Origin: Naegleria gruberi
Lineage: Eukaryota
DNA length: 64,000 nt
Direction: 5' to 3' (one strand)
NCBI GenBank assembly: GCA_000004985.1
Contig: GG738913.1
The stretch's first letter is position 1, and each line of letters starts with the position of its first letter. Below, in pieces: positions 23,432 through 46,045 of this stretch. Under the pieces are notes generated by a model that ran no database searches, was not told where the DNA came from, and was given only the letters and a program-made list of their open reading frames with translations. The position numbers and the translations under genes were made by a program.

Positions 23432-25801
23432 ATGTCCATCAACAAGATTTTCACACACAATTTGGGTTTCCCAAGAATTGGAGCTCGTCGTGAATTGAAA
23501 CAAGCTTTGGAATCCTACTGGTCATGTAAAATTGATTTGAATGCATTGGAATTAGTCGGTACTCAATTGAGAAAGCAACATTGGGAACAACAATTACAAG
23601 CTGGTCAATTGGATTTAATTCCAGTTGGTGATTTTGCTTGGTATGATCAAGTTTTGGAATGGACAACAACTATTGGATGTATTCCAAAACGTCATCAATC
23701 TGATTCTGCTCAAGATCAACCTTTCCACTTGGATACTTTGTTTAGAATGGCACGTGGTAGAGCTCCAACTGGTCAACCAGCAGCTGCTTGTGAAATGACC
23801 AAGTGGTTTGATACTAATTATCACTTCATCACTCCAGAAATCAAATTGAATCAAGAATTTGCTCTTTCTCGTACTTTCCTCTTTGAGCAAGTTAAGGAAG
23901 CTGAACAAGTTTTGGGAATTGATCGTGTCAAGCCAGTTATTATTGGACCATTGACTTGGTTGTACTTGGCAAAGGGTGAGGAATTTGTTGGTTCTCTTGA
24001 TTCTAAGAAATTGACTCTTTTGGAAAAGTTGTTACCAGTTTACAATCAAGTTTTACAACAATTTAGTCAACTTGGTGTTAAATGGACTCAAATTGATGAA
24101 CCTGTTCTCTGTTTGGATTTGAATGATGAATGGAGACAAGCTTTCCAAACTTTCTATCAACAATTGAATCAATCCAAGAAGCTTAACATTTTGATTGCTA
24201 CCTATTTTGGAAATTTGTTGGACAACTTGAAAACTTTGGTCAATTTGCCAGTCGAAGCCATTCACATTGATGCTGTTCGTGCTCCACAACAACTTGCACC
24301 TGTATTGGAATCTCTCAAAAATTCCTCAAAGATTTTGTCAGTTGGCTTAATTGACGGAAGAAACATTTGGAGAAGTGATTTGGATGCTTGCATTGAAACT
24401 ATTCAAAAAGTTATCATTGGAGAATTCAAATTTGATGCTTCTCGTTTGTGGCTTTCTCCTTCCTGTTCCCTTTTACATGTTCCTTTCGATTTGAAATACG
24501 AAACTAAAATCGATGCAGAATTGAAGAGCTGGTTGAGTTTTGCTGTTCAAAAGCTGGAAGAGTTATCTTTGTTGGGTTATGCAGCCCTTCTTAAAGATGG
24601 ATGCGAAGGTTCAATTCCTTCCAATATCTCTTCTCTTCTCGCCACTCAAAGATCTGCAATCGAATCTAGAAGAAACTCTGTTAGAATCCACAATCCACAA
24701 GTCAAGTCCAGAATGAATGAATCCATCTCAACAGACAGATCACATCCATTCGATGATAGAAAGAAGGCTCAACAATCCAAATTCCATCTCCCAAAGCTTT
24801 TCCCAACCACCACCATTGGATCTTTCCCACAAACTCAAGAAATTCGTTCCATTCGTTTGAAATACAAGAATGGAACTGTTTCACGTGAATTATACGAAAA
24901 GTTCATGAAGGAAGAAATTGAGAAAGTTGTTCGTCTTCAAGAGGAAATTGGTTTGGATGTTTTGGTTCACGGAGAACCTGAAAGAAATGACATGGTTGAG
25001 TATTTTGGTGAATTGATGAATGGTTATGCATTCACTGAGAATGGTTGGACTCAATCATTTGGTAGCAGATGTGTTAAGCCACCTGTTATCTTTGGAGATA
25101 TTTCACTTGATAAGCCAATGACAGTTGAATGGTCTTCATATGCTCAATCTTTGACTGATAAGCCAATGAAGGGTATGTTAACTGGTCCAGTTACTATTTT
25201 GAACTGGAGTTTCGTCAGAGATGATCAACCAAGAAGTGAAACTTGTAAGCAATTGGCTTTGGTTTTAAGAGATGAAGTGCTCAACTTGGAAAAGGCAGGA
25301 ATTAAGATTATTCAAATTGATGAACCAGCTGTAAGAGAAGGTTTGCCATTGAGAAAATCTGACTGGAATACCTATTTGAAATGGGCAGTTGACTGCTTCA
25401 AGTTGACAACATCAGGTGTTGAAATTGATACTCAAATTCACACTCACATGTGCTATTCTGAATTCAATGACATTATTGACTCAATTGGTGCAATGGATGC
25501 TGACGTGATTAGTATTGAAACTTCTAGATCTAATATGGAATTATTACAAGCTTTTGAAGATTTCAAATATCCAAATGATATTGGTCCAGGTGTTTATGAT
25601 ATTCACTCTCCAAATGTTCCAAATGTTGAATGGATGGTCAAGTTGATCAAGAATGCTATTGAAAGAATTCCAAAGGAAAATATTTGGATAAATCCTGATT
25701 GTGGTTTGAAGACTCGTGGATATCAAGAAGTTAAGCAAGCTTTAATTGCTATGGTCCAAGCAGCTCAACAATTGAGAACTGAATTTGAAACTTGTCAATA
25801 A
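23432..25801 (+). CDS. metE: cobalamin-independent methionine synthase (5-methyltetrahydropteroyltriglutamate-homocysteine S-methyltransferase, MetE)
   Basis: MSINKIFTHNLGFPRIGARRELK start. Both MetE halves are present, with the C-terminal Zn site (HxC...E...C: IHTHMCYSEF...DCGLKTR). 789 aa in a single exon. Confidence 0.95.
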   Translation: MSINKIFTHNLGFPRIGARRELKQALESYWSCKIDLNALELVGTQLRKQHWEQQLQAGQLDLIPVGDFAWYDQVLEWTTTIGCIPKRHQSDSAQDQPFHLDTLFRMARGRAPTGQPAAACEMTKWFDTNYHFITPEIKLNQEFALSRTFLFEQVKEAEQVLGIDRVKPVIIGPLTWLYLAKGEEFVGSLDSKKLTLLEKLLPVYNQVLQQFSQLGVKWTQIDEPVLCLDLNDEWRQAFQTFYQQLNQSKKLNILIATYFGNLLDNLKTLVNLPVEAIHIDAVRAPQQLAPVLESLKNSSKILSVGLIDGRNIWRSDLDACIETIQKVIIGEFKFDASRLWLSPSCSLLHVPFDLKYETKIDAELKSWLSFAVQKLEELSLLGYAALLKDGCEGSIPSNISSLLATQRSAIESRRNSVRIHNPQVKSRMNESISTDRSHPFDDRKKAQQSKFHLPKLFPTTTIGSFPQTQEIRSIRLKYKNGTVSRELYEKFMKEEIEKVVRLQEEIGLDVLVHGEPERNDMVEYFGELMNGYAFTENGWTQSFGSRCVKPPVIFGDISLDKPMTVEWSSYAQSLTDKPMKGMLTGPVTILNWSFVRDDQPRSETCKQLALVLRDEVLNLEKAGIKIIQIDEPAVREGLPLRKSDWNTYLKWAVDCFKLTTSGVEIDTQIHTHMCYSEFNDIIDSIGAMDADVISIETSRSNMELLQAFEDFKYPNDIGPGVYDIHSPNVPNVEWMVKLIKNAIERIPKENIWINPDCGLKTRGYQEVKQALIAMVQAAQQLRTEFETCQ

Positions 25802-28228: not shown

Positions 28229-28714
28229 TTATTGATGTTGTATGTGCTTAATTCTTTTGCTGGTGTCATTGAGTTTATCATCAAAGCTGTGTTTACGAGG
28301 TCTTCCTCTTGGTCGTTTAGGTTGTGCCTTTTTCCTTTCTTCTTCCTCCTTCATGGATTCTACGGTGTGGCAAACAAAGGGAAAACTCTCATTGTGTTTT
28401 CTCTTTTTGCTATCTTGAAGTGTGTTTGTTGTTGTTTTTTCAGCTGAAATAAAACATGTTTGTGGAGCAAATGAACTGGTATTAGGTGGAGATTCAGGAA
28501 TTGGTTGGAATGCATTATTTACAAGAATGTTATTCATGAAAGGGTGTTGGTTGAATGTGAATGTTTCATTGGTTGATGGATTGGAATAATCTGAGGTTAT
28601 TGGTTGGAAAATATTGTTGGGTTGAATCGTAACTGTTTGGTCCAACCAAATGTACAATTTCAGTAACATTATTTCTAATGAGTTGGTGTCCTGTTCAGCC
28701 AATGATAGATTCAT
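28229..28714 (-). CDS. small single-AT-hook protein, family member 1
   Basis: ATG at 28712-28714. N-terminal LEIMLLKLYIWL motif. C-terminal TVESMKEEEERKKAQPKRPRGRPRKHSF. GRP is the AT-hook core. Confidence 0.6.
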   Translation of the reverse strand: MNLSLAEQDTNSLEIMLLKLYIWLDQTVTIQPNNIFQPITSDYSNPSTNETFTFNQHPFMNNILVNNAFQPIPESPPNTSSFAPQTCFISAEKTTTNTLQDSKKRKHNESFPFVCHTVESMKEEEERKKAQPKRPRGRPRKHSFDDKLNDTSKRIKHIQHQ

Positions 28715-29087
28715 TTCTAATATATTGATTTTTTTGTACTCTCAATCTCCATTTCCAATACATCAATTTGTTGCATTGGAGAAACATGAGGAAACTGAGC
28801 ATTTTGTTGGATTCGGTAGCAATTAGATGTGTTTTGAAAGAGATGGTTATAATATGAAGAAGAAAAATCAAAATTTAGAAAGTGTACCATACCATTATGA
28901 GATGTTTGATAGAAATACTCTTTCCCATTCTCGTATTTATTGAATTAAATTACAGAAAATTGGTGGTAGGTGTTCCTTGTCGGAATAGGTGTTATCACTC
29001 ACTTTATCAATAATTTCAAACTCAAAAACATGTCAAAAACCAAAGTCTGCTACGATTAAGACAACACAACATGTTGATATCTGACAT

Positions 29088-29645
29088 TTAATTATCGTCT
29101 TTATTGACAGTCATATATTCCATTTTCAATCGTTTAGTTTCACTTTTGATTTCGAAACTGTTCTTTCTTGGTCTTCCTCTTGGTCGTTTGGGTTGAGTCT
29201 TTTTAAGCTCTTGCTCTTCTCTAATTGATTCAACTGTAGAACAAATGAAAGGAATTGGTTTCCTTATGCTTAACTGATTTGTGAAACTCGATGATTTTCT
29301 GCTTGTCTCAAAAAATGGTTCTTGTTTGATTGATAAATTTCCAAACGAAATTTGAGTTGAAGAGGTGGCAGTAGTTGATGTATTTACAGTAAGGAATGAG
29401 TTGTCAGCATTACACGGATTAGAACCAAACAACATGATGTCATTACATGTATCTACATGCTGATTTGAAGTAACTTTCAACATTTCCTTGGGGCAAGCTG
29501 AACAATTTGGTGGTTGTTGTTGAAGATTTGATGCTTGTTCTTCCTCCAACATTATATATAACCTCAATAACATTTCCAATTGATTTGTGTTCAATAAGGT
29601 CAAACCGAATATTTCAGCTTGTTCTTCATGATCATTGCTGCTCAT
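29088..29645 (-). CDS. small single-AT-hook protein, family member 2 (tandem paralog)
   Basis: ATG at 29643-29645. N-terminal LEMLLRLYIML. C-terminal STVESIREEQELKKTQPKRPRGRPRKNSF. Confidence 0.6.
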   Translation of the reverse strand: MSSNDHEEQAEIFGLTLLNTNQLEMLLRLYIMLEEEQASNLQQQPPNCSACPKEMLKVTSNQHVDTCNDIMLFGSNPCNADNSFLTVNTSTTATSSTQISFGNLSIKQEPFFETSRKSSSFTNQLSIRKPIPFICSTVESIREEQELKKTQPKRPRGRPRKNSFEIKSETKRLKMEYMTVNKDDN

Positions 29646-30379
29646 TCTTAATATACTTGAGAAAGAGGAGTTTTTTTTTGAAAGGAAATTGTTATAAACT
29701 AGTAGTTTGTAAAGTACTTAACAAACTACGTGATTCTGTCTCTTCTCAAAAAGTAATAATAAAAGATGCACGCTCACAAAATTGTTTATTTATTGGCCCT
29801 TTTTTAGTATTTGTATTGAACTTATGACGCATTATGCGTTTCTTGATTTGGGAAGTTGTGCACAACCAAATCTCAACTTCTCTGAGATTGTTATTTGAAC
29901 GTTTTTAATCTTCATACCACAGTGTTGAGATGACAAATGGTTGCATATTGGTCTAACTAGAACTTGACGAACAAACTGTAATATTTCTATTAAGGTATTA
30001 CTCAAAACCGAACTCATTTTTGAAATCTTATTTGTTGGCATCTGTTATCACCTAAGAACTCACGGAATTTTTGCCATGTATTGTTAATAGTAATTTTTTC
30101 GAATATTTTCAATGTAAATTTCTATAAAGGAAGGATGTATTAGTACGCTCAATAAATCGCTCTTTTTGTAATAATAGAGACAGTTCTCTGAATGGAAGTT
30201 TTCATTCACTATTTTATCGAATATCTCTTTCATTGCCAATCACTCACCTTCTTCAAATATAATGCCATTCCGATTTACAACAGTTGAATGTCTATTGATG
30301 TGTATAATCTTCTGTCCGTTGATATGGCAACTGTGGTTCCTTAATCACGAGATATCTTGTGTCTTTCAATACAAAAAAA

Positions 30380-32915
30380 ATGGTACAAATCCAACCAGTA
30401 AACAATCAGAAAGAATCCGCCTACCTCAATGATGACTATTCTTCTGAACAATCGTCCAGTTTAATCTCCTCCTCTGAAAAGTCCTTCAGTGTTTCCTTCA
30501 AATTTTGTATCATTGCCACTACTTCCTCACTAGTTGCATTTAGCATAATCATCTTGACAGGTATCTGGTTAGCAAGTATCACTTCCACCTCATTGGAAAT
30601 GTCAACAACTTTGAGAGAGAATGAATTCTTCAAGATTCGTCAATTTTGTCTTCAATTAATTCAAGATGTTTATACAGTTTCAAATACGGTTACTGGTCAA
30701 TTAGGTGTTCAGTTCAATTCTTCCTCAGATAATGAAAAGGCGCTGTCAATGTACCGTCTTTACAAGTCAGAAATTAGCTCATCTCACAAGTCAATTGTGG
30801 CAACTTTGTTTATTGCTGATCCACAAGCAACCCTTGTTGGTTTATACATTTTTGGAGGAAAACCAGTCAAGTTTAAGGCAACTCAGCATGTTTCCCTTGA
30901 TTTATACTATTGTAATGATGTAGAGAATTACGATTATTGTAATTCAAATTCGAAACCTGATTTATCACTTCCTGCTTTTGATAATTCGAGACCTGTTGTT
31001 GCGTGTAATGAAAATCCGAATGGAACTTTCTTTTTACCTTCATTCGCTGATGTTACTTTGCCTGATTATATGTTTCTTACATTGATTTATTGTTTTCAGG
31101 GAGATAGTGTCAGTAGAGTTTCGTCTGGTTTCAAATACTTGTTTGCTTATCAATTGTCTTCGAATACATTGTCTGAATTCTTGATTAGTAGTACCAAGTC
31201 AGTTGTTTCAAGTGTTGCTTTGGTTATGGAAATAGATACAGGTTATGTTGTGGCAAGTAAGTTGACAAATTTTCTATAGATTTTACTTTCGAATAATTAG
31301 CCAATATGGAAAACTCAAAACTGTCAGTTTTGGATAACAGTGGAAACATCAAAAGAAAGGGATTGCTCGACTTGACAGATCCTGATCAATTCGATGTTTC
31401 CTCATATGTTTACAATCAATTCAAAACAAATTACAAAAACTCAATTGAGTGCAATTCAAACATGTACTTTTCCACAAGTACAAGATACATTTCCGTATAT
31501 AGAATGTGCAAGGGAATCGACTGGTTACTCATTTACTCAGTTCCAATTTGGAATTATACAGGTAGCTTAGTAATTGCAGTTGTTTGTGCCATTTCTGGAG
31601 GTTTACTTATTTTGGTGTTTAGTGCCATTTTAGGAGTGGTCTTATCTGTGAGAATTGTAGCTCCATTTAAGAATTTAATAATGATGTTTAATAATGTTTC
31701 GAACATGGATTTGGATTCTTTAAATTTGGATTCCAGTCGTTTCAATGAAGTTCAGCAATTGCAATACCATTTCATGTCAATGGTCAGACAAATCAAACTC
31801 TACAGATCCTTCTTGCCCTCTCATTTATTAGCTCAAGTAAGTTGATTCTCTCTTCTATGTGTTGAAGAAATATAATTCAATTTCACAATATTCAGATTGA
31901 TAATAATGAAAATGATGGAAACGAAACTAATCAACCAAAAGATCAACAAGTTGAAAAACACGAAACTGCCTCCAAATCTTCCAAATCCTTCTCTAGTCAC
32001 CAATCTAGTCACCAAATTTCCAATTCCTCATCTTCCATGTTAAAACACAAAGGACACATCAATAGATTCGAATTGTATTTAGAACACAAATCTAGTACTG
32101 CACTAGCTCTCTATATCAAAGGACTTTCTCAATTATTTGCTCAACATTTAAAGACAGAAAAGGAAATCCTACATGTTCTTAAAGAGATTTTTGAAATTAC
32201 CAATTCAGTTTCCACACAATTTAACGCCCAAAGAGGAAATTTAGAAAATGACACAATTATTTTGACATTTAACACTTCCATAAATGTTAATCATCATGAA
32301 TTGAAAGCAGTTGAAGCAGCTAACGTATTACAAGGCAAATTACAAAAACTTTCTGAAAAATGGAACTCTAGTATTGATACTGAACTATTTTACAATCAAC
32401 TTAACTTTCGAATTGCAATTTGTAATGATAATACTTTTTGTGGAAATGTTGGAAGTCATGATTGTAAGAATTTTACAAGTATTTCATGTTTGAAACCTCA
32501 TTTAGTGAGCTTGTTTGCTAAATCTCAATCCATGAATGTCCAAATTATTCTTTCAGATGCAATTTATAAGAAAGTTTCGTCCAAATTCGAAACTAGATGT
32601 ATTGGAAAGATTGATTGGTTGAGTGGAAAGAATGAATTCAGTCTTTTCCCTTCAATTGACCAAACCAATGAACCACCACACCTTACTCATGTCCACGAAT
32701 TAGGAAATTCATTGACAATCCAAATGGACGAATGGTTATACGAATTGGAACAAAAAGAAAAATCAAGCAAATGGAAAGTTTACAATGCAGCAATTGATTG
32801 TTTTGAAAAGAATGAATTTGAACAGGCAAAACAATTTTTTGAGGAGTTTTTGAGTAAAAATCCGCAAGATATTCCAACTTTGCACATGATTAGAGAATGT
32901 GATTTGAAACTATAG
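30380..32915 (+). CDS. receptor-type class III cyclase-like protein, paralog of 10647..13101; exons 30380..31256, 31301..31836, 31896..32915
   Basis: ATG at 30380 (the ORF track starts at a GTG at 30359). Introns: GTAAGT..TTAG at 31257..31300 (44 nt) and GTAAGT..TCAG at 31837..31895 (59 nt). Both join in frame, and the 47 codons from 31896 to 32036 are open. TM helices FCIIATTSSLVAFSIIILTGIWLA and GSLVIAVVCAISGGLLILVFSAILGVVLSV. C-terminal FRIAICNDNTFCGNVGSHDCKNFTSISCLKPHLVSLFAKSQ resembles cyclase beta4-beta5. TPR-like tail. Confidence 0.7.
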
Positions 32916-32992
32916 TTTAGTTTCGTATGTATAAAACTAAACTTTGAGTTTACAAAGATTAACAGAAACTACCTTTGGAACTGTCAAAAAAA

Positions 32993-34669
32993 ATGTCGTC
33001 AACAATCAACAGCTTGATAATTGCGCTCACTTTCGTCTTGCTGTTAACTAATCTTGTCGAATGCACCATTAAAAAATCATTTTCACAAGATTTAACACCA
33101 ACTCTCCTAAATCCTCTCCGTGGTTTCGCCAGCTATGAAGATTCGTATAAAACCAACAAGTTTCCACAATCTTTAGAATATCGTTATTTTTCCATGAAGG
33201 AATTAATGAACGGAACACAAAGTTTTACATTTTCAGCAACTTTGGAACCATACTTGAATAATGTCAAGTCAAGAAAGAGACAAGCCATCTTTCGTATATA
33301 TCTTGATTATCCGAATTGTTGTCCTGATGGTCAATATAATACAGGAGTGCCAGATTTTCTATTGACAGGTGCTAATCCAGTTACATTTACATCTTATCCT
33401 GATTATGGTGGTGGTAAATCACCTGATTATTCGAATGAAAGATTAGTTTCGTCCATTGAACAATTAATTGCTGAACTTGCAAGAAAATATGATGGAGACA
33501 ATAGAATTGCATATGTTCAAGTTGGAATTTTAGGATATTGGGGAGAATTCCACACTTATCCAAATACTACATTGATGGCTCCATTGGCCACAAGACTCCG
33601 AGTATTGTCCGCATTTTACAATAATTTCAATATTACAAAATTATTAGTTTCACAAGATTCAATGCAATACTTTTGTCCACCACTTGCTGGAACGACTAAG
33701 AATGCAGGATGTGATGTTTCGGTTACTTCAGCTCCGTATCCAACAGTTTCGTATCCATCTATTGGATTCCACGATGATGCATTTGCGGATTCAACTTATT
33801 CAGCAACCAGTGGTAAAGATTATTACTTTTACAATAGATTACAATCTAGAATTCCAGATATTAATTCATTCTTGACTGCTTCAAATGGAGGTAAGGGAGG
33901 AGGAGTGATGGGTGGTGAATTATATCCATCCTATCAATCGAAAATATTTAAAACAACTTGGACAGGTCAGGATTTCTCACAATGTGTTAAAAAGACCAAT
34001 GCTACATGGTTGTTGAATGATTATGTATTTTCTACTTTGGCTAATTCACCAACTACTGAATGGTATGCTGCAAGAAATGCTTCATTAATGTTGGGTTATG
34101 CATTTACATTGAGAAATGTGGAAATGACAAGTATCACAAGTACTTCATTGACTTTGACATTTGGAATGGAAAATATTGGAAGTGCACCATTCCCATATTT
34201 GGATATTAATTTGGCTGTTTATTTGAAAAATGCAACAACTAAAGCATTGATTGCTTCTAATGAAGCTACTTCAATTTATCAATTGACTCCTGCAAGTGGT
34301 TCACAAAATATTAAGGTAAATTTAAAGTGGTCAACTCCAATTACAACAAGCCCATATGTTTATGTGAATTTGAAGAGTAAGCAAGTTCCATCAACCATCC
34401 CAATTGCATTTGCTGTGAGTGGTGCTCCAACAGATGGTTCAGATTTTTTAGTCATCTCAACTGTTGAGCAAATTTCAACTAATGGAACAACTCCTACCCC
34501 ATCTCCAACACCATCACCACAATCATCTGTCAAGACAAGCTCTAGTACTGGAAATAATGGTGGAATTAAAACAGGAAACTCTACTAGAACAGTTTCAGAA
34601 TCCTCCTTGAATAGTTATGTTTCATCTTGGATCATATTTGCCATTTCTTTAATTTATCTGATTTATTAA
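32993..34669 (+). CDS. secreted, GPI-anchored putative glycoside-hydrolase-like protein with Ser/Thr/Pro-rich stalk
   Basis: ATG at 32993 (the ORF track starts at a TTG at 32975). Signal peptide MSSTINSLIIALTFVLLLTNLVEC. Conserved blocks RIYLDYPN and GILGYWGEFHTYP. TPTPSPTPSP linker and hydrophobic C-terminus WIIFAISLIYLIY. Confidence 0.65.
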   Translation: MSSTINSLIIALTFVLLLTNLVECTIKKSFSQDLTPTLLNPLRGFASYEDSYKTNKFPQSLEYRYFSMKELMNGTQSFTFSATLEPYLNNVKSRKRQAIFRIYLDYPNCCPDGQYNTGVPDFLLTGANPVTFTSYPDYGGGKSPDYSNERLVSSIEQLIAELARKYDGDNRIAYVQVGILGYWGEFHTYPNTTLMAPLATRLRVLSAFYNNFNITKLLVSQDSMQYFCPPLAGTTKNAGCDVSVTSAPYPTVSYPSIGFHDDAFADSTYSATSGKDYYFYNRLQSRIPDINSFLTASNGGKGGGVMGGELYPSYQSKIFKTTWTGQDFSQCVKKTNATWLLNDYVFSTLANSPTTEWYAARNASLMLGYAFTLRNVEMTSITSTSLTLTFGMENIGSAPFPYLDINLAVYLKNATTKALIASNEATSIYQLTPASGSQNIKVNLKWSTPITTSPYVYVNLKSKQVPSTIPIAFAVSGAPTDGSDFLVISTVEQISTNGTTPTPSPTPSPQSSVKTSSSTGNNGGIKTGNSTRTVSESSLNSYVSSWIIFAISLIYLIY

Positions 34670-34693: not shown

Positions 34694-37600
34694 TTATTTG
34701 AATAAGCGAACTAGTTGATAGATTATGAAAATAACCAACATAGCATGGAGAAGGAAATGCACAATCATTGATTTGCTTATCAATGATGACTGCTTTCGTT
34801 CTACAGATTCGAATTGGACGTGTAAAATTCTCATACTTGAAGCCATCAATCCAGCAAATGGAATCCAACTTGGTGCCATGAATGGATATCTTTCTTTCAC
34901 GCCACCAATTTGTTGTCTTTCCTCCATTTGGTATTGCTCTGAAACTAGCTTTGCCTTTCTGTGAAGGGAATGCACAAATGGTTCAGCATCGACAACAAAG
35001 GATTTGAATGGACCTCCCTTATTGAGAGATTTCACAGAGCTTGGTGTGAAGAAATACGGAGCAAAGCCTGACATTTCAAAAAGAATATTACTACCTGGTA
35101 GTTTCTTTTCCAACATTTCGAATATTTGAACAAGTTGTGACTTTTCAAAGTAGAGGAATAGACCTTCTGCAATTACCAAAACTGGAATTGACTCACCAAA
35201 TGATTTTCTTATGAAAGCAAGATCTGAAAATGTTGATTCTTCTAGAATAGATCCACTTTTACATTCGTATAGTGGTTGTTTCGTATTGTCATTATTGTTA
35301 ACAATATTAAAAACTTGTCTTCTCAATTCAATGACATTTGGCAAATCAATATCAATCCAATGCACCTTCTCATTCATTCCAAATAATCTTTCATATCTAG
35401 AACACAATCCACATCCCAAATTAACAATCATTACCTTTTCATGCTTAGCCAAACTCTTACTCACAAATTCTTGTGATTTCCTATCCAAGACAATAGTTCT
35501 CCCAACAATATTAGTTCTGGTAATTCTATCATTCTGAACATCAACAGAGAGATCTTCTGGTAAGTTTTGGAAGATTTTCACAGCAATTGGATCATATAAA
35601 ATTCCATCGCTTTCAAGAGATTCGAGAGCTCTGGAAACGAGTGGAATGTAGAGAGTTCTTTCGAGAGGTGTGAGGACAGAGTTCTTATCTTGAGCAATGT
35701 CTACGTCAAAAGGAGTTGGATTATGTGATGATTGTTGTGGAGAGCCAAGAATGGAATGTGAAATAAGATTCGAATAATGTTTGTCAAGTTGATGTCCACA
35801 ATTCTTAACAGTAATAATATTCAATCCATTTCCTGCAAACTTATTCCAGTTGTTAATTGTATTTCCTGTTACTAATTTATCAAATTCGCCTCTGAGAGCA
35901 ATAACTGGACAGTCAACTTGGTATTTTCCAAAAATGTCATCGTCATAACAATGATATTTCAATAAAAAGTCAAATTGGTGTTTGAAAAGTGGAATTTCCA
36001 TCAAATCTCTAATCTTCTTTGCCTTTTCATCCAAGTTCTCAATTCCTTCTGTTACATTAGGGAACAAGTCAAGATCGACAATTCCATAAATGATCGATTG
36101 ATCTCCCAAAGTTTTAAATTTCACATAAGAATCACCATGAAGCGAATTTCCAGGAGCATTTCCACTAACAATCAATTTTACAGGTTTCTTATTGAACTTG
36201 AATTGAATAAATCTTGTAAATTCAAGAGCAACCAAAGCACCCATGCTGTGTCCATAGATTGTAACCGTATTGGAATTAAATAGTTGATGGACACAATCCC
36301 AAACTTGCATGAAATGAGCAGTCCAATCAGAATTATTTCTCAAATAATCCAAATTAATCACATAAATGGAAAATTCTTCAAGATTTAAATCTCTAAAATC
36401 ATGAACTGTTCCACCAAGTGCTGGAAAACAGAGTAAAACATTCTCTGATGATCTTTCTTGGATAGTTTCTAATAACAAGTGCTTTTCTAATGAATTGGTT
36501 TGATTTGGACTATTAGATTGTTGTGTTAATTGTTGATTGGATGATTTTCCAGAATTGGAAATCATTTCAACAAGAGTAGAAACCGAAACTCCAGATAAGA
36601 GAGTCGAAACTGTAATACTTGATGAAAATTCTCTTGATAGAATATTTCTTATTTCTACACTCATGAGAGAATCAAGACCATAGTCAACAAGTGGTTTCTC
36701 CAGTTGAATTTCACTTTCGTCCATTCCAAAAACTTTGGATACAATATCTGAAACCTTTCTAACAATTCCATCAACGTTAGAATCTGTAGTTGTTGATTTT
36801 CCTTCAATATTTGATTCCTTTCTTTGACGACCAAATGTTACATGAGGTGAAAGTGAATCCTCAGGCATTTCAAATCCAAAGAAGGTCATTGCAGGAGGAA
36901 GATCCATCTCGTGTTCAATCAAATATTCGAAATGATCAAGTAAATCATGAACATGCATAGCTCCAACCCAGAAATATTCATCAACTTCTGCCTTAGTTGC
37001 ATATCCAGCTCCTGTAATCAAACTTAGACCTAAAGATTGTCCAGCCAATCCACAACTTCTTCTATAGCTACACAAAGATTCTAAGAAATAATTTCCACTA
37101 TTATAGTTTGATTGACCGAATGCTCCAACCAAAGAACTGAAAGAGCTCAACATTAAAAAAGTGGATAGATTGCAATTGAGCTTGATTGAACATTGGTGAA
37201 GGTTGAAACCTCCGAGAATCTTTGGTCTGGCAACAGTTTCGTACTTTTCTTTTGTCATCTTATTTGCAGCACAATCGGATAAAACCATTGCTGAATGGAC
37301 AATTCCTGTAATTGGGAATTTTTGATGGATTTCTTGCATTGTTTGATAAAGAGTTGAGTAATTGCAAATATCAGTAATGTAAACATCAATAGATGCATTA
37401 GGGTTATTCAGCATAATCTTGTCAATGATCAATTTTTCAGATTTGTTTGGCATTCTTCTTGTAAGAAGGGCAATGTTTGAGACTTTCATCTTTTCAACAA
37501 GCCATTCGCACATCTTTAATCCAATTCCACCCAATCCTCCACTAATAACCCAACAACCGTTATTCAATATCTTCTTTTGAGATGTCAAAGAATTATAAAT

Positions 37601-40600
37601 AACATTGGAATAAAAGTGAACAAATCTTCCACTTTCAGAATAAACAATTTCATCATGAGTATAAACAGATTCAAGGACATCATCAACAATTTCACCAATT
37701 GAGTTTTCTGAACATTTAGGTTGCATATCAATAACCTTTAACTTCTTTTGGAATATCTCAGTTTGAATTGATCTCAAACATCCAACAATAGAAGATTGAG
37801 AAATGTTACATTCCTGATTGTAACCAAAAACTGAACTAGTTAGAGCAACGAATTTACATCTGCCAGTATTGAACTTGAGTATCTTACAAATTGAGTACAT
37901 AGATTCCACACAATTGGAAACTGTTTCAAACTCGAAAGAGCTTAAAGAAAGTGGCCAACCGAAAATAATTCCACAGATATTCAAAGTTTGATTGAATATT
38001 GATTCGAAATGTTCAAAATCTGCAGGATTAATAACGAATCCAGAATCAAGTTGTTGGAATTTTTCACCTTGAATAATTTTGACAACTTTTACACCTCTAG
38101 ATTTCAATTCTTCACACAATAAATTTTCCTTTTGTGTTTCAGAAGAGAAGAACAACCATCTCTCAACATTTTTCTCTTTCTTCTTTGCTATAATGTAATT
38201 TGCAGTACCAATTGGCAACATGACATTTGAAGGGAAATCACAATCCAATAAAACTTGTTCCCACTCATTTCCTGATAGCAAAGCAGATTGCTTTCTGAAG
38301 GAATCCTTAAAATACCACCATCCCTTCAAAGTACCAACGAAAAAGTGTAAAAATTGAGCTCCAAGAGGATCAGACTCAACTAGGACTAATTGACCATTGG
38401 AAACCAACAAGCTTGAAATGAGTGAAAAGACGGATTTCAAATCTTGAGTAGCATGAACAACATTAGCAGCGATTACCAAATCAAACGAATCCTTTTCAAT
38501 GAATTCTGAAGAAACAAATGGCTTTTCAATATCTAATAAAGAAAATTCCATAAAATATTCGAATTGTGCAAACTTTTCCTTTGCCTTCACCAAAAACAAT
38601 GGTGAAATGTCTGTGAAAACATACTTCACATCTATATAATCTCTCAATGAATCAAGAATTGGTAAAATTTGTTTGGTTGTTCCTCCAAGTCCAGCTCCAA
38701 TTTCCAAAATTCTCAAAGTCTTCTTTTTACCATTCTTTGGAATGGAGTTCAAAATAAAATCAAACAATGGTTTAGTTTGATGAGAAACTTCATCATAATA
38801 ATCATTCAATACATGTTCTTTTCTTGAAAATAGGACAGAAACAGGATCTGCCTCACCAGTTAATAATTGCTTCATGTGAATTAAACTATTTTCCACCAAA
38901 TCGATCAGATTGGAATAAAGATCAATTCTTGGAAATTCTCTCAAGGATTTGATAATATTAAATCTATTAGGAAGATCACTAACTACTGTATAAGTATCTG
39001 AATCATATTGGACAAGATTCATTTGTAAAGCCAACTCAATAGTCAATTGAGCAAGTCTCTTCAAATGTTCTGGTTGAATCCTAGAATTCAAAACAGAAAG
39101 CTCGATAGTAGAACTTTCACATAACTCTTGGAATACATTCAAACAATATTCAACACAAACCTTGGTAACAAATCTATTAAGAGATTCGTGTTCGTTTGAG
39201 TATTCATTGAGTTTGAAATTGAGAATAAACTCTTGCAATGATTCCATAGAAGGAAGAATAGATTTAGAATAGATTGGTTGTGGTGCAAAGTTTGATGATA
39301 CAATAGAAGTTTCTTGAAGTTTCTTTTCTTTGGTTTCCAAAGGTGAAACTTTGAAACCATTGAAAGAAATAAATGGCTCATTAGATTCTCCCAAAACTTG
39401 TAAATCACAAGTAATTTCTTTTGTTTGAGCATTCTTCGAATATTTAACACATCTGGTGATGGTGTGTTTCGAATTGTTTGGTTTTCTATGTGGGATGATT
39501 GTAATTTCGTCTGTGGAAATTGGAAGATAGGTTGTATCCTCTGGCATTGAACAAATCATCATTTGGAAACATGAATCAAGCAATGCAGGATGCCATGTAC
39601 AATATCTTTCGTCATTTTCCAAAGCTTTTGGATGGGAAATTTGTGCCATCAAAACTTCTCTTGTTTCGTCATGTCCAACTTGGCTGTACAAATCCAATCC
39701 TTGGAAACAAGGTCCATAATTGAGGCCACATTTGGACAGATTGAAATAGATATTCTCCTTATGAATGTTTTGTGTTTTTTCATCAAGATTTTCTGTGAAA
39801 TTTCTGAAAATATCAAAGGCTTTCAATTCTCTGTTTGTGAAATTGATGGAATCACCAGAATTAGAAGAATCTAGAGTTTTGAAAGAACCAAAGGCATGTA
39901 AAGTCCAATCACAAGGTAGCTTATTTGATAACTTGGAAGGATCTTTGGAAATTTCTGAATAATTAATAGATAACAAGTCAACCTTCTTTTTGCTGAAAAT
40001 TCTAAACTCATTAGCATACAAATTCAAATGAACTTGAACAATTCTAGGCTCTTGTTGTAAAATCATTGGATTTACCACTTTGAAATTGACTAGACGAAGC
40101 TCTTCAACATTCTTGGACGAGTTATCAAGAATTGCTGCAGAACTAATCTCAACGAAACCAGAATATGGGAAGAATACTTCATTTTCAATCTTGTGATCTC
40201 TAATATACATTTGATCAGTGTTAGAACTAATATCAATAAGACTCTCATAGATAATATCTGGAGAATTTTCCATTGGATTGAATTTTCTGTTACCCAAAAG
40301 TGGATGATTAATAGTTTCGAATTGACCAATTCTCCATCTCAAAGATTCATAAGATTCTGACCAACAAGATTGTTTCTGGAAAGGATATTTAGGAATTCCA
40401 TCCAATATCTTACTATTCTCTCCATATCTATTAATTTGTTTCCAATCAAGTTTAGAATATCCATTCACAAACAATGAGGAGACAACTTGTAACAAACTCA
40501 TTTGTTCATCCTTCTTTCTAATCAATGTTGGAATTACAGAAATAGAATCTTCATTTCCTAATGAAGAAGACGAAATATCCTTAATGTATCCATTCAAAAC

Positions 40601-43184
40601 CGGATGGGAAGATATTTCAATAACATATTTGATTGAGTTTTTGTAAGTGTGAAAAATCTCTTCCATAGCTTGTGAAAACAAAACCTTCCCTCTGACATTA
40701 TTCCACCAATATTCTGGTGTTGACATTTCTTGGAGGTTTGACTTTCTTCCAGTGACAGTAGAGAAAACGGCTTGAATATTATCATTTGGTTTGGTTCCTC
40801 TTTCCTTTTTTGAGATTCTATTAGAAAGAACTTCTAATAACTCTTTCTTGATTACTTCCATATGGCTGGTATGGAATGCAGCTTCATTTCTCAAAAAGAC
40901 ACAGTTGACTCTTGAGTTTGGTTCATTTTCCACATACTTGGTGAGATCAAGTTGCAATTGTTTCAACACATGTTCTTCACCACCAACTACAACGGAGGAA
41001 TTACTATTTACAGATGCAATCTCAACAGTATTGTTAAATCCAAGAATATCCAAAATTGAGGCCAATTTGTCCAATCCTAAATTGATAGCCATCATTTTAC
41101 CTGTTTTAGAAAATTCTTTCAAGATGGTTGCACATTTGTTTTGCAATCTTGCTCTATGATAAATCAAGAATACAGCTTCCTCTAGAGTGAGGCATCCATG
41201 CACGTATGCAGCTGTCACTTCTCCAACTGAATGTCCAACAACAATTCGAGGAGTGACTCCATATGATTTCAATACTTCATAACAACCACATTGTACTGCA
41301 AAGATACATGGTTGAGCAATGTTGGTTGAGTAAATTCTGGTGTCCTTTTCTGTTCTTGTAGTCAACTCTTCTACAATTGACCACTTGTCATTGGTTGGCA
41401 TTATCTTTTGCATTTCTGAATCAATTCTTTCAACTGTGGCAGAGAAAACATTGTTGGTTTCCAATAATTGTCTTCCCATAGCAAACCATTGAGGTCCTTG
41501 TCCAGAGAAAACAAAGCAAATATCGGATTTTTCTTCTCTCTTGCTTGAGTTACCAATGCTAGTTGATTCATTAGATGAAAAATTGGAGGACAATTGGAGG
41601 AGCTTTTCAACGAGCTCATCTTTGTTGTTGTAAATGATAGAAGCTCTGTAGTCTCTGAATTGACTCTTCTTTTCACAATAGTTGAAAAGTAAATCATCTT
41701 GATTGCATTGAGCTGAAAACTCAGCAACGCTACTAGACATCATCTTGAGTGAGTATTCACTCTTGGCAGAAAGTGGAAGAATTCTAATACCTTCTGATAT
41801 GCTATTCTTTCTTTGATGTTCTAATTGCTCAACACTTTGCAAGATGCAATGAGCATTAGTACCACCCATACCAAAGGAATTAATTCCAATAATAACAGGA
41901 TTGATATTAGAAGGGATTTCTTCTTCTTGCATGACAACTCTAATTTGTTTCTTCTCAAACTCAATGTGAGGATTGAGTGTGCTCTCAGTGCAATGAATAC
42001 TCTTAGCTATCTTCCTATGTTTCATCATGAGAATAGCTTTGATAATACTTGCAATCCCACTTGTTGCCTCTGTGTGACCAATATTACTCTTGACAGAACC
42101 AATTGGTAACTTGTCAAGTTTGTGCTTTCTTCTTTCTCTTCCAAAGAATGAATCAAGAGCTTGAGTTTCAATCTTATCTCCAATAGTAGTTCCAGTTCCA
42201 TGACTTTCAACATAATAAACATGTTGTGGAGGAATGCCACTCTTGTTGTACACTTGTTCCAATAATTCAACTTGTCCTTCCAGAGAGGGCATTGTTATTC
42301 CACTCTTTCTTTCTCCATCGTGATTGACCCAAGTTGACATGATCAAAGCATGAACTCTTTCATGTTGTGAAGAATTCGCATGCTTGTATGTGTTGATGAT
42401 GAGATGATGAATCTAATTTCTTCAAAATTAATACAGCAACACCTTCAGATTTTCCATAACCATCAACATGTGAAGAGAAGGTTTTACATCTTCCATCTGG
42501 TGCTGCTGCTCCAATAAGCTTTTGAGATACAAATTCTTGTGGAATGTAGTTTAAATTAACTCCAGCAACAATGGCCATTTCGCATTCATCTCTCTGTAAA
42601 CTTTCACATGCACAATTGAGTGCTACCAAACTTCCTGAACACATGGTATCGAGAGTGAATGACGGGCCTCTCAAATCGAAATGATACGAAATCCTGGCAG
42701 AATTGTTAGCTGGTGAAGAGTTTATCAAACTGTACGAGTTGTAAGTTTGCATGTCATGCCAGCCTTTCATGGTGAGATAATCTTGGTTCATCACAGAACA
42801 AAACACACCAATGTTTCTTCCTCTGATTTCTTCCCATTTAATTCCAGCATCCTCCAAGGCAATGTAAACTTGTTGAAGAAGGAGACGATGTTGTGGATCC
42901 ATGGAGCATGCTTCCTTCTTGGAAATTTCAAAGAATTCAAAATCAAACTCATCTAATGGTTTCTCCAAGAAGTGAGCCCTGTTGTAGGTTTGCTTATTGT
43001 TGTGGAATCTTGATGATTGTCTTTCCTTTGGTATGGTTGAGCTGGTGTCACTACCGTCAAGAAGAACTTGCCAGAATGATTCAACATCCACTGCCTGTCC
43101 AGGGAACATACAACTCATTCCAATGATGCCCATTGGTGAGTTTTCAGCAGAGTTTGATGGAGTAGTAGAATTGATAGAAATCAT
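34694..43184 (-). CDS. iterative type I polyketide synthase, KS-AT-DH-cMT-KR-ACP-TE-(TcmP/LCM-type O-methyltransferase)-TM; KS domain frameshifted at ~42363..42390 (two ORFs 42360..43184 and 34694..42346)
   Basis: ATG at 43182-43184 (MISINS...IIGMSCMFPG). KS motifs TMCSGSLVAL, HGTGT and GGTNAH. AT GHSVGE. DH HPLLGNRKF. cMT LEIGAGLGGTT. KR GGLGGIGL. ACP GLDSLMSVE. TE GHSMGALVALEF. LCM/TcmP-family VNLGCGLCSRYERL. C-terminal helix IVHFLLHAMLVIFIIYQLV. No ER domain. Confidence 0.9.
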
Positions 43185-43705: not shown

Positions 43706-45380
43706 ATGATTATCTACATACTTGTGGCTATTCCATTTCTGTTTCTTCTCTATGTTGGCTATCTATTGTGCAAGTTGTATGTATTCAACAGATATCCAAA
43801 GAATGTTTTTCTGGCGCCGCACTATCTAACAGAGAATGTTGTCCAAACCAAAAAGTTCAACAAGAATCCTTTCAAGAAAGAAAAACTTGCAGAGCATTAT
43901 GATGCAATCATTATTGGCTCAGGTGTTAGTGGCATTATTTGGGCAAGATGATAGGTCCAGAAAGTGAGCTGATGGATCTTCTCTGTGATAGAAAATTGAG
44001 ATGTTGTCCCTTGATGAGAACTTTGATAATCTGTCCATTATTAATTCTGCTACAAATGAAAAGTTGTTAGAAATAGAAATTCCTGAAGGTCAAGACAAGT
44101 TAATCAAAAAGCTCAAAGAAGTCTTTCCAGAAGAATCCAAAGCCATTGATGAGTATGTTGAGATATCGTTTCCACCAAAGTATGAAATTATTCCAGTTAT
44201 TATTTTAAAGTGTTTCCCATTCATATTTTCCAAATTATTCAAGTATCTAGTTGCACCAAAATTTATGAATTATGTCCATACTAGTATTGGTCAAGCTCTT
44301 GACAAATTGACGTCCAATCAGCTTCTTAAGAGTGCCATTTGCTATATTGGCATAGATTATGGTTCAAATCCAAAAGCAACTCCACTCTATGAGCATTCAA
44401 TGATTCACAATATTTTCAAGAATGGTGGTCACATTCCAAAGGAAGGAGCAGACGATATTGTCGAAAGTTTGATAAAGGTCATTAGAAAAGGAGGTGGAGA
44501 TGTGATGAGCAAGGCAAATGTTGCTTCAATCCACATCAATAAGGAAGGAAAATGTGGAGGAGTGTGCGTGTTAAAGAACAAGGACTCTATCATTATTGAA
44601 TCTCCGATTGTAATTTCATCTGCTGGAGTTTACAATACTTATTCAAAGCTCATTCCTCGTCCAATAAGAGAAAAACTTGGCTACAATCACTTCAAGTACA
44701 CGCCTTCATATTCTGTTCAGGCAACCTTCCTTGGCTATGATGGCACAATAGAAGAATTAGGATTAAAGTTCCAAAACTATTTCATCATGACTAACCCTGA
44801 TTTTGATGGTCAATTTACCAGATACATGGAAAGTGATGGAGATATTGACCCAAAGAATGGCATTGATATTCCAATCTTGATAGCCAATCTCAGACCTTAT
44901 AATAACAAGGTTTCAATGACTATCCTCAGCTTTGCCAATCATGCATGGTTTCAAGAGTGGAACCATCAACGAGTTGGACAACGTAGTGTTGACTATGAAG
45001 ACTTGAAGGAGAGAATTGCCAATCGAGCCCTCGAATTATTATACATGAAACATCCACAACTTGAAAATAGACACTCTGTAATGAGTACTTCCTCACCAAT
45101 TACATTTAATCATTATCTATCCAATAATTTTGGAGATTACATGGGTTTTAAGAGAGTGGTTGGTAATGATGATGGTGTATTCCGTTGGGGAAGGCCAATG
45201 TCCAATCTGGAGAATTTGTTTTTGGTTGGGCAGGATATCTTTGCAGGAGGTGTGCAGGGAGCAATGTTGAGTGCTTTAATTACATGTGGATGCGTGTTGA
45301 GGAGGAATTTGTTTGATGACTTGGCAAAGGCCGTTGAAGAGATGAAGAAGTGGAAGGCTTTGCTATTTTGTTTTAAATAA
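43706..45380 (+). CDS. RetSat/CrtISO-like FAD-dependent oxidoreductase (phytoene-desaturase family), apparently internally deleted (ORFs 43706..43951 and 44001..45380)
   Basis: N-terminus: TM helix plus NPFKKEKLAEHYDAIIIGSGVSG (FAD GxGxxG), collinear with RetSat residues ~1-80. The second ORF is collinear with RetSat residues ~150-end (LKSAICYIGIDYGSNPKATPLYEHSMIHNIFKNGGHIPKEGADDIV... and C-terminal LFLVGQDIFAGGVQGAMLSALITCGCVLRRNLFDDL). The ~70 residues expected between them (rest of the beta-alpha-beta FAD fold) have no coding space (only 49 nt). Confidence 0.65.
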
Positions 45381-46045
45381 CTTTTATTAATTATTTTTTT
45401 TAATTGGGAATCATATTCAAAACTATTCTTACGAGGTCTTCCTCTTGGTCGTTTAGGAAGACTCTTCTTTAATTCTTGTTCTTCCTTCATGGACTCTATT
45501 GTTGATATGAAGAATGTATTATTGTTACCTTTGGTACTTATGACGGTGTTGTTATTATTGGTATTTACAGGGGTGGTAGAAGAGGAGCTGCTAGTGGAGT
45601 AAGCAAGGATCGTCCTATGATTGTTATTATTATTAATATTTACAAATGATGATAAAGATTTTGGGGTTTGTTGCTTGCATTCTTCCATGATAGCAACATT
45701 GTTATTATTAGGAACAACATAATTATTGGATAAATTCAGTGGCTGATTCAATAGTGCCTTGTTTAGATGGTGATTGTTCATTGGCCAATTGTTGTTATCT
45801 TCATCATATGATGGAAGGAAGGAATCATCCACTGTGGGAGCATAATTCTCATGGTAAGGATTATTATTGGAGCTACTTAAAAGCAGATACAACAAGAATA
45901 GTGTCTGCTCGTTTGTGATATTGAAAGGTGAATGGTTTGGAAGCATTTGTTTTGTTACTGGTACCATAACTAATAACACATTATAATAGCCATTTACTAT
46001 GGTATGTGAACCCTGCATTCCTACTCTTCTGGAAATATATCTCAT
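45137..46045 (-). CDS. single-AT-hook protein, family member 3 (3' end uncertain: ORF runs antisense into the 3' end of the neighbouring gene)
   Basis: ATG at 46043-46045. TLFLLYLLL motif. STIESMKEEQELKKSLPKRPRGRPRKNSF at ~45428..45510. The other two family members terminate 23-27 codons after PRK, so the true stop or an intron probably lies near 45380-45420. Confidence 0.5.
   Translation of the reverse strand: MRYISRRVGMQGSHTIVNGYYNVLLVMVPVTKQMLPNHSPFNITNEQTLFLLYLLLSSSNNNPYHENYAPTVDDSFLPSYDEDNNNWPMNNHHLNKALLNQPLNLSNNYVVPNNNNVAIMEECKQQTPKSLSSFVNINNNNNHRTILAYSTSSSSSTTPVNTNNNNTVISTKGNNNTFFISTIESMKEEQELKKSLPKRPRGRPRKNSFEYDSQLKKIINKSYLKQNSKAFHFFISSTAFAKSSNKFLLNTHPHVIKALNIAPCTPPAKISCPTKNKFSRLDIGLPQRNTPSSLPTTLLKPM

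Follow-up and report, generated by a model that had tools for sequence, protein, structure and literature searches.

A family of small single-AT-hook proteins in Naegleria, with three N. gruberi members on both sides of a polyketide synthase gene

In the 64-kb stretch of Naegleria gruberi DNA analysed here (the window), three small minus-strand genes, two of them in tandem and the third 16 kb away beyond a polyketide synthase (PKS) gene, raise the question of whether they form a family of genuine genes, what kind of protein they encode, and whether their position around the PKS bears on what they do. This arrangement had been proposed from the sequence alone, and the corresponding open reading frames (ORFs) are present:

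28229..28714, minus strand: copy 1 coding sequence, an ORF of 161 aa from Met1
29088..29645, minus strand: copy 2 coding sequence, an ORF of 185 aa
45137..46045, minus strand: copy 3, maximal ORF of 302 aa

ORFs of 161–302 codons are far longer than expected by chance in DNA of ∼34% GC, as estimated from the composition of the window, and pairwise BLASTP comparisons among the three window copies (E = 4e-13 to 4e-20) bear out the suggestion that they are paralogous. Copies 1 and 2 are separated by 373 nt. Copy 2 is identical over 185/185 aa to the N. gruberi 'predicted protein' XP_002670670.1 (EFC37926.1; NAEGRDRAFT_74350), encoded on a 236-kb scaffold, and copy 1 has been deposited as the 146-aa N. 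gruberi predicted protein P0003, which corresponds to residues 16–161 and begins at Met16 (MLLKLY). These exact matches make the window heterolobosean and dispose of a dictyostelid (social amoeba) origin, which its GC content of ∼34% had suggested. Because homology between copies 1 and 2 continues in the alignment upstream of Met16 (DTNSLEI versus NTNQLE), Met1 of copy 1 (28714) is the better start, and the N. gruberi gene model should be shifted upstream. The start of the P0003 model (28670-28714, minus strand) sits inside the conserved N-terminal motif of copy 1. Copy 3 is missing from the protein collections, in which neither an exact sequence nor a profile match was found (the N. gruberi matches were P0001–P0003 only), and represents one gene, or one decaying gene, absent from the current annotation.

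The three proteins share a C-terminal block of ∼32 residues that aligns without gaps as F.x[SH]T[VI]ES[IM][KR]EE[EQ]E.KK..PKRPRGRPRK[NH]SF:

28283..28378, minus strand: copy 1 C-terminal block, F113–F144, with the AT-hook PKRPRGRPRK at 28292-28321
29154..29249, minus strand: copy 2 C-terminal block, F133–F164, containing helix 138–149 and the AT-hook at 29163-29192
45419..45514, minus strand: copy 3 C-terminal block, with the AT-hook at 45428-45457

The sequence PKRPRGRPRK, invariant in all three window copies, comprises the RGRP core with flanking basic residues and prolines. That it is a canonical AT-hook within a shared block, as the sequence-only reading had it, is confirmed by the ungapped alignment and by scores against Pfam AT_hook (PF02178), which for copies 1 and 2 (18.6 and 18.0 bits) exceed the gathering cut-off of 17.4 bits and for copy 3 (17.3 bits) fall 0.1 below it; 7/8 family members match this model at E <= 0.1. 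The 23-nt DNA core CGAGGTCTTCCTCTTGGTCGTTT, also previously noted at three sites, was indeed located at 28296-28318 (0 mismatches), 29167-29189 (2 mismatches) and 45432-45454 (0 mismatches), with no further sites and 0 matches expected from shuffled sequence. A six-frame regular-expression scan of the 64-kb window detected no AT-hooks besides those of the three copies, one per protein. Following the hook is a tail in which K and R make up 31% of residues and which carries a K[RK][IL]K patch. In Pfam searches AT_hook was the sole family detected in the proteins, with no second family even at E <= 1. In a profile search of the PDB, the only structure with similarity was that of HMGA1 hook 2 solved on DNA (2ezd), to which PKRPRGRP is identical; the other match, the VHS domain of STAM2 (E = 0.08), was non-significant. 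The earlier statement that no other domain is recognisable is thus upheld by both searches, neither of which placed the block in a larger known family.

The family had been thought to be three-membered and specific to this locus, a description that wider searches overturned. A fourth N. gruberi member, P0002 (NAEGRDRAFT_72974, 182 aa), is encoded on a separate 309-kb scaffold; of all the members it is nearest to copy 3, with which it shares 44% of residues over 178 aa (tblastn against the window, E = 1.5e-32). The Naegleria fowleri and Naegleria lovaniensis members lie at loci devoid of a PKS and with no gene in common with the window. A full HMMER search of 1.84 billion representative proteins with a four-protein profile (threshold E <= 1e-3) returned six matches, namely three from N. 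gruberi, one from N. fowleri (FDP41_002022; P0005, with a longer variant P0007), one from N. lovaniensis (C9374_013011; P0006) and P0004, a 213-aa ORF on a 1.1-kb contig (L003 1-1084) from Logan run SRR32051689. Profile E-values of family members against these 1.84 billion proteins ranged from 1e-4 to 6e-76. The block, in the more relaxed form F.x[SH]T.[EK]S[IMF].[EA]E...K...PKR[PG]RGRPR, is present in copies 1–3, P0002, P0004, P0005/P0007 and P0006. N. gruberi thus has at least four members, and four 'predicted/hypothetical proteins' from three species can be joined as one family with a defined motif. A further four sequences, P0008–P0011, obtained in a word-index search with a wider eight-sequence profile, have the hook alone in common with the family and were rejected as relatives. 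No relatives were detected among the IMG/VR viral contigs and JGI metagenomes scanned. As far as searchable public data were covered, the family appears limited to Naegleria, plus the SRR32051689 contig. No paper was found to carry the locus tags and, to go by title and abstract, none that mentions both Naegleria and AT-hook deals with this family. On this coverage it is a previously undescribed, genus-restricted group of small, disordered proteins with an AT-hook, whose deposited members are labelled 'predicted/hypothetical proteins'.

The N. fowleri (L001 10001-10522) and N. lovaniensis (L002 315-962) members are only about 30% identical and have no flanking genes in common. The two are probably paralogous, not orthologous, and this in turn would suggest that those genomes contain further unannotated copies.

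Whether the similarity extends to the N-terminus was addressed by local alignment of the region upstream of the C-terminal block, compared with shuffled sequences, and by ungapped 16-mer probes. The segments concerned are:

28637..28687, minus strand: copy 1 Leu-rich motif, residues 10–26 (TNSLEIMLLKLYIWLDQ), from the shuffle and 16-mer tests
29529..29588, minus strand: copy 2 N-terminal helix, residues 20–39 (TNQLEMLLRLYIMLEEEQAS), from an AlphaFold pLDDT of ∼80 and the motif tests
45872..45913, minus strand: copy 3 Leu-rich motif (NEQTLFLLYLLLSS), from alignment, 16-mer and profile-profile comparison

Copies 1 and 2 are significantly similar upstream of the block (z = 5.0, 1/1000 shuffles; 16-mer 0–1/3000), as are copy 3 and P0002 (z = 11) and copy 3 and P0004 (z = 4.6), whereas copy 3 against copies 1 and 2 was no different from shuffles (z = -0.5 to 0.9). 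The 16-mer motif of copies 1 and 2 matches P0004 strongly (3–4/3000); in copy 3 and P0002 its best match falls at the expected N-terminal position and is individually non-significant (copy 3: 184–672/3000), and in the N. fowleri and N. lovaniensis members these probes found no match. Profile-profile comparison of the N-termini of the two subfamilies placed MLL[KR]LYI.L in register with LLF.L[YH]LLL (P = 0.011 over 14 columns). Taken as a family criterion, the N-terminal pattern ..L[LF].L[YH][IL].L.. (first ∼35 residues) was significant between copies 1 and 2, between copy 3 and both P0002 and P0004, and between P0004 and copies 1 and 2, but not directly between copy 3 and copies 1 and 2, with no match in the N. 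fowleri and N. lovaniensis members. Of the N-terminal motif ascribed earlier to all three window copies, what stood under formal alignment is thus the part concerning copies 1 and 2, to which it is clearly common; a direct link of copy 3 to these did not, and its connection is only marginal or transitive, since copy 3 and copies 1 and 2 each match P0004. Through its own N-terminal motif (EQLIQLLFQLYLLLDNEQ), P0004 (L003 1-1084) bridges the two N. gruberi subfamilies. A possible second, acidic/hydrophobic motif was also noticed, reading DDSFLP(S/C)..E(N/D) in copy 3 (residues ∼40–52 from Met34) and P0002 (25–38), and CFL(S/T)LDYDS(V/L).. in the N. fowleri (P0007, 73–86) and N. lovaniensis (P0006, ∼63–75) members; when aligned with MAFFT it was non-significant (z = 0.8 against shuffles).

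The shared block could in principle mark the boundary of a recent segmental duplication, or it could belong to a transposon relic or to spurious ORFs rather than to functional genes, as might be suspected from the identical 23-mer in copies 1 and 3 and from copy 3 being unannotated and overlapping its neighbour. Nei-Gojobori analysis of a 31-codon block, taken from the window copies and from three loci of other origin, gives a different picture. Across the six sequences synonymous differences are saturated (pS 0.47–0.96) and non-synonymous differences low (pN 0.15–0.37), with dN/dS of 0.15–0.62 where computable; among the window copies alone pS is 0.65–0.87 against a pN of just 0.15–0.20. At the DNA level the window copies are 73–80% identical over 82–90 nt of the block (self-blastn, tblastx), and neither these searches nor a repeat finder detected any similarity in the flanks beyond ∼100 nt. 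The block (103 nt, 71% identity) is the only notable repeat family between 26.5 and 47 kb, and no terminal direct or inverted repeats are present around the copies. The earlier idea of a segmental duplication boundary therefore falls away, as similarity stops at a ∼100-nt block in which synonymous sites are saturated, and the whole set of non-functional explanations, which would also have to account for full-length ORFs of the same architecture in three Naegleria species, is extremely unlikely. The pS and pN values, together with the intact ORFs, rule out not only a segmental duplication or gene conversion of recent date but also a transposon relic and ORFs arising by chance. With pS saturated, pN low and full-length ORFs intact in three species, the window copies are real genes, duplicated long ago and kept under purifying selection for their protein sequence.

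Codon usage within the hook was also uneven. Its first Arg (28313-28315, 29184-29186 and 45449-45451 in the window, and the corresponding codons in L001 and L002) is encoded by CGA in 5/6 sequences from three species, CGA being rare (6% of Arg codons) in the long ORFs of the window, and the hook codons AGA-GGA-AGA are invariant in 6/6 sequences against a background of saturated synonymous sites in the rest of the block. This conservation could reflect a constraint at the nucleotide level or chance in a small sample.

Copy 3 differs from the other members at both ends, and its maximal ORF can be divided as follows:

45356..45946, minus strand: part homologous to the family, from tblastn with P0002 and alignment
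45137..45395, minus strand: read-through tail without family homology, antisense to the 3′ end of the flavoprotein gene

Its start is most likely Met34 (45946; MLPNHSPFNITNEQTLFLLYLLL, MLPNHS...) rather than 46045, because P0002 begins in the same manner (MLPTNTIHEQTLLFLLHLLL, MLPTNT...). Copy 3 retains all the invariant residues of the block and, still in frame, the K-K-I of the K[RK][IL]K patch. At the point where family members usually terminate it lacks a stop, and the frame remains open for ∼85 codons more. This tail is antisense to the conserved 3′ portion of the convergent flavoprotein gene (44001-45380, plus strand), whose homology to phytoene dehydrogenase extends to about residue 434, near 45303. 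Within a run of eight A residues (45394-45401) in the KK codons of copy 3, removal of one A would give QLKK followed by a stop, and addition of one A would give QLKKNN followed by a stop, either change bringing termination within 1–3 codons. The missing stop could mean that a stop codon was lost and the antisense ORF is fortuitous, that a 3′ intron has escaped recognition, or that the gene is starting to decay; lacking the usual stop and running antisense into its neighbour, copy 3 may be decaying.

Proteins of the family are 160–215 aa long and made up of four parts. The first, clear in N. gruberi-type members, is a short, very hydrophobic N-terminal helix with acidic flanks (..LEMLLRLYIMLEEE..), in which 9/11 residues are hydrophobic and in which, by reading of the sequences, an LxxLL motif occurs in 4/5 N. 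gruberi-type members. It is followed by a low-complexity, disordered linker rich in N, S, T, Q and P (51–55% of residues) that varies in length between members, then by a conserved charged helix (ST.ES[IM][KR]EE.ELKK) and, directly after this, by one optimal AT-hook, PKRPRGRPRK, with the basic K[RK][IL]K tail. AlphaFold2 together with the family alignment predicts for copy 2 a mostly disordered protein with two short helices, at residues 20–39 (the Leu-rich motif and then EEE) and at 138–149 (the charged helix just before the hook), each with pLDDT ∼80; residues 54–126 have pLDDT < 50, and the model as a whole is poor (mean pLDDT 55.8, pTM 0.18).

In AT-hooks generally, the RGRP core enters the minor groove of AT-rich DNA, and a hook with its basic tail can serve as a nuclear localisation signal, as in HMGA; such behaviour is reportedly covered in the Aravind–Landsman survey of AT-hook proteins, the basis for the mechanism proposed here. 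The basic hook and tail would direct nuclear entry, and the RGRP core would bind AT-rich DNA, plentiful in this genome of ∼34% GC, through its minor groove; such binding is predicted by analogy, from the identity to HMGA1 hook 2 in 2ezd. DNA binding by an isolated AT-hook is weak, as HMGA peptides show. The N-terminal hydrophobic/acidic helix, an obvious candidate for self-association or partner recruitment, would bind either a second copy of itself, giving a dimer with two hooks, or a co-regulator, so that the proteins would work as small DNA-tethering adaptors or transcriptional regulators. Casein kinase 2 recognises Ser/Thr-x-x-Glu spacing, and the fit of ST.ES..EE to this consensus suggests phospho-regulation beside the hook. 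That these old, Naegleria-only paralogues combine a tether to the minor groove of AT-rich DNA with a hydrophobic interaction helix is, on balance, somewhat probable. AT-hooks are widespread, and lineage-specific disordered proteins bearing them are common; to our knowledge, very few transcription regulators have been characterised in the Naegleria lineage. If the mechanism is right, these proteins would be genus-specific minimal DNA-tethering regulators in a lineage that includes the pathogen N. fowleri.

Another possibility is that the main role of the hook is to localise the protein to the nucleus or nucleolus, or to provide a patch that binds RNA, in fast-evolving, lineage-specific disordered proteins whose DNA binding is not sequence- or structure-selective. 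The presence of one hook only, the disorder that AlphaFold predicts for the rest of the protein and the strong divergence outside the short motifs (28–43% identity even inside one genome) are all compatible with such a role. The hook itself, however, corresponds to the optimal consensus over its whole length, flanking P, K and R residues included, and across species with saturated synonymous sites in the block it is invariant or varies at P/G and the final K alone, a degree of conservation that exceeds the need of a generic basic localisation signal, and we consider this explanation unlikely.

Among known systems, the architectural chromatin proteins HMGA1 and HMGA2 (HMG-I/Y) are likewise small and intrinsically disordered, and the hook core of HMGA1 hook 2 is the same PKRPRGRP. 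The hook variant of the N. fowleri and N. lovaniensis members, KRGRGRPRK, we take to resemble HMGA1 hook 1. HMGA proteins, however, have three AT-hooks in ∼100 aa and an acidic C-terminal tail, whereas the Naegleria proteins have exactly one hook and a basic tail, together with two helices that HMGA lacks, one Leu-rich and N-terminal, the other conserved and just ahead of the hook; outside the ∼10-residue hook no similarity to HMGA was detected in the Pfam and PDB profile searches. In plant AHL proteins one or two AT-hooks serve as a DNA tether beside a separate interaction module, a logic like that proposed here, but this module is a folded PPC/DUF296 domain C-terminal to the hook, which was not detected in the Naegleria family (Pfam, E <= 1), where the equivalent would be a helix of ∼15 residues. 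By domain content, then, the family members are neither HMGA nor AHL proteins.

With the tethering reading in mind, the neighbourhood of the window copies can be considered. The features between and beside them are:

23432-25801, plus strand: MetE, a complete cobalamin-independent methionine synthase (Meth_synt_1 and Meth_synt_2, E = 3e-162)
30359-32915, plus strand: three ORFs with no significant Pfam domain, and a sub-threshold TPR in 32037-32915
32975-34669: DUF4832/DUF4874 protein (Pfam)
34694-43184, minus strand: type I highly reducing PKS, KS-AT-DH-MT-KR-ACP-TE with a C-terminal leucine-carboxyl-methyltransferase (LCM)-like domain
44001-45380, plus strand: weak phytoene-dehydrogenase-like flavoprotein, by homology

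The label 'cyclase-B' previously given to the ORFs at 30.4–32.9 kb is not supported by Pfam. Of the four N. gruberi members known, three fall within a 17-kb stretch, on both sides of the PKS and its neighbours, which invites the view that the window copies are cluster-situated regulators of the flanked DUF4832/PKS/flavoprotein block, comparable to the pathway-specific transcription factors of fungal biosynthetic gene clusters. Their likeness to fungal cluster-specific regulators (Zn2Cys6 proteins such as AflR) is one of position only, a putative DNA-binding protein beside a PKS, with no domain in common, and tandem or local duplication alone would yield such clustering. P0002 is encoded on a different scaffold, and at the loci examined in N. 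fowleri and N. lovaniensis the association is not conserved. The first of these (±10 kb around the N. fowleri gene) contains DAO, ferric reductase, Fcf1, SET-TPR, RasGEF and other genes and no PKS. Neither this N. fowleri locus nor that of N. lovaniensis (10 kb on one side, the gene lying 315 nt from the contig end) gave a tblastx match to the window at E <= 1e-8, the PKS included, and no synteny was found between the two loci. A functional link of the AT-hook family to the neighbouring PKS is accordingly unsupported. A regulatory role of the fungal type is very unlikely, and the more specific proposal that the tandem pair and copy 3, at the cluster borders, are dedicated chromatin-level regulators of the PKS/flavoprotein/DUF4832 block is a shade more doubtful again; were it true, this would be a protist biosynthetic gene cluster carrying its own lineage-specific minimal AT-hook transcription factors.

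Two further points concern the surrounding genes. The MetE gene is located upstream of the tandem pair. In the PKS, the N-terminal half of the KS domain is found in a separate ORF in another frame (42360-43184), and the gene therefore probably contains one short intron near 42350.
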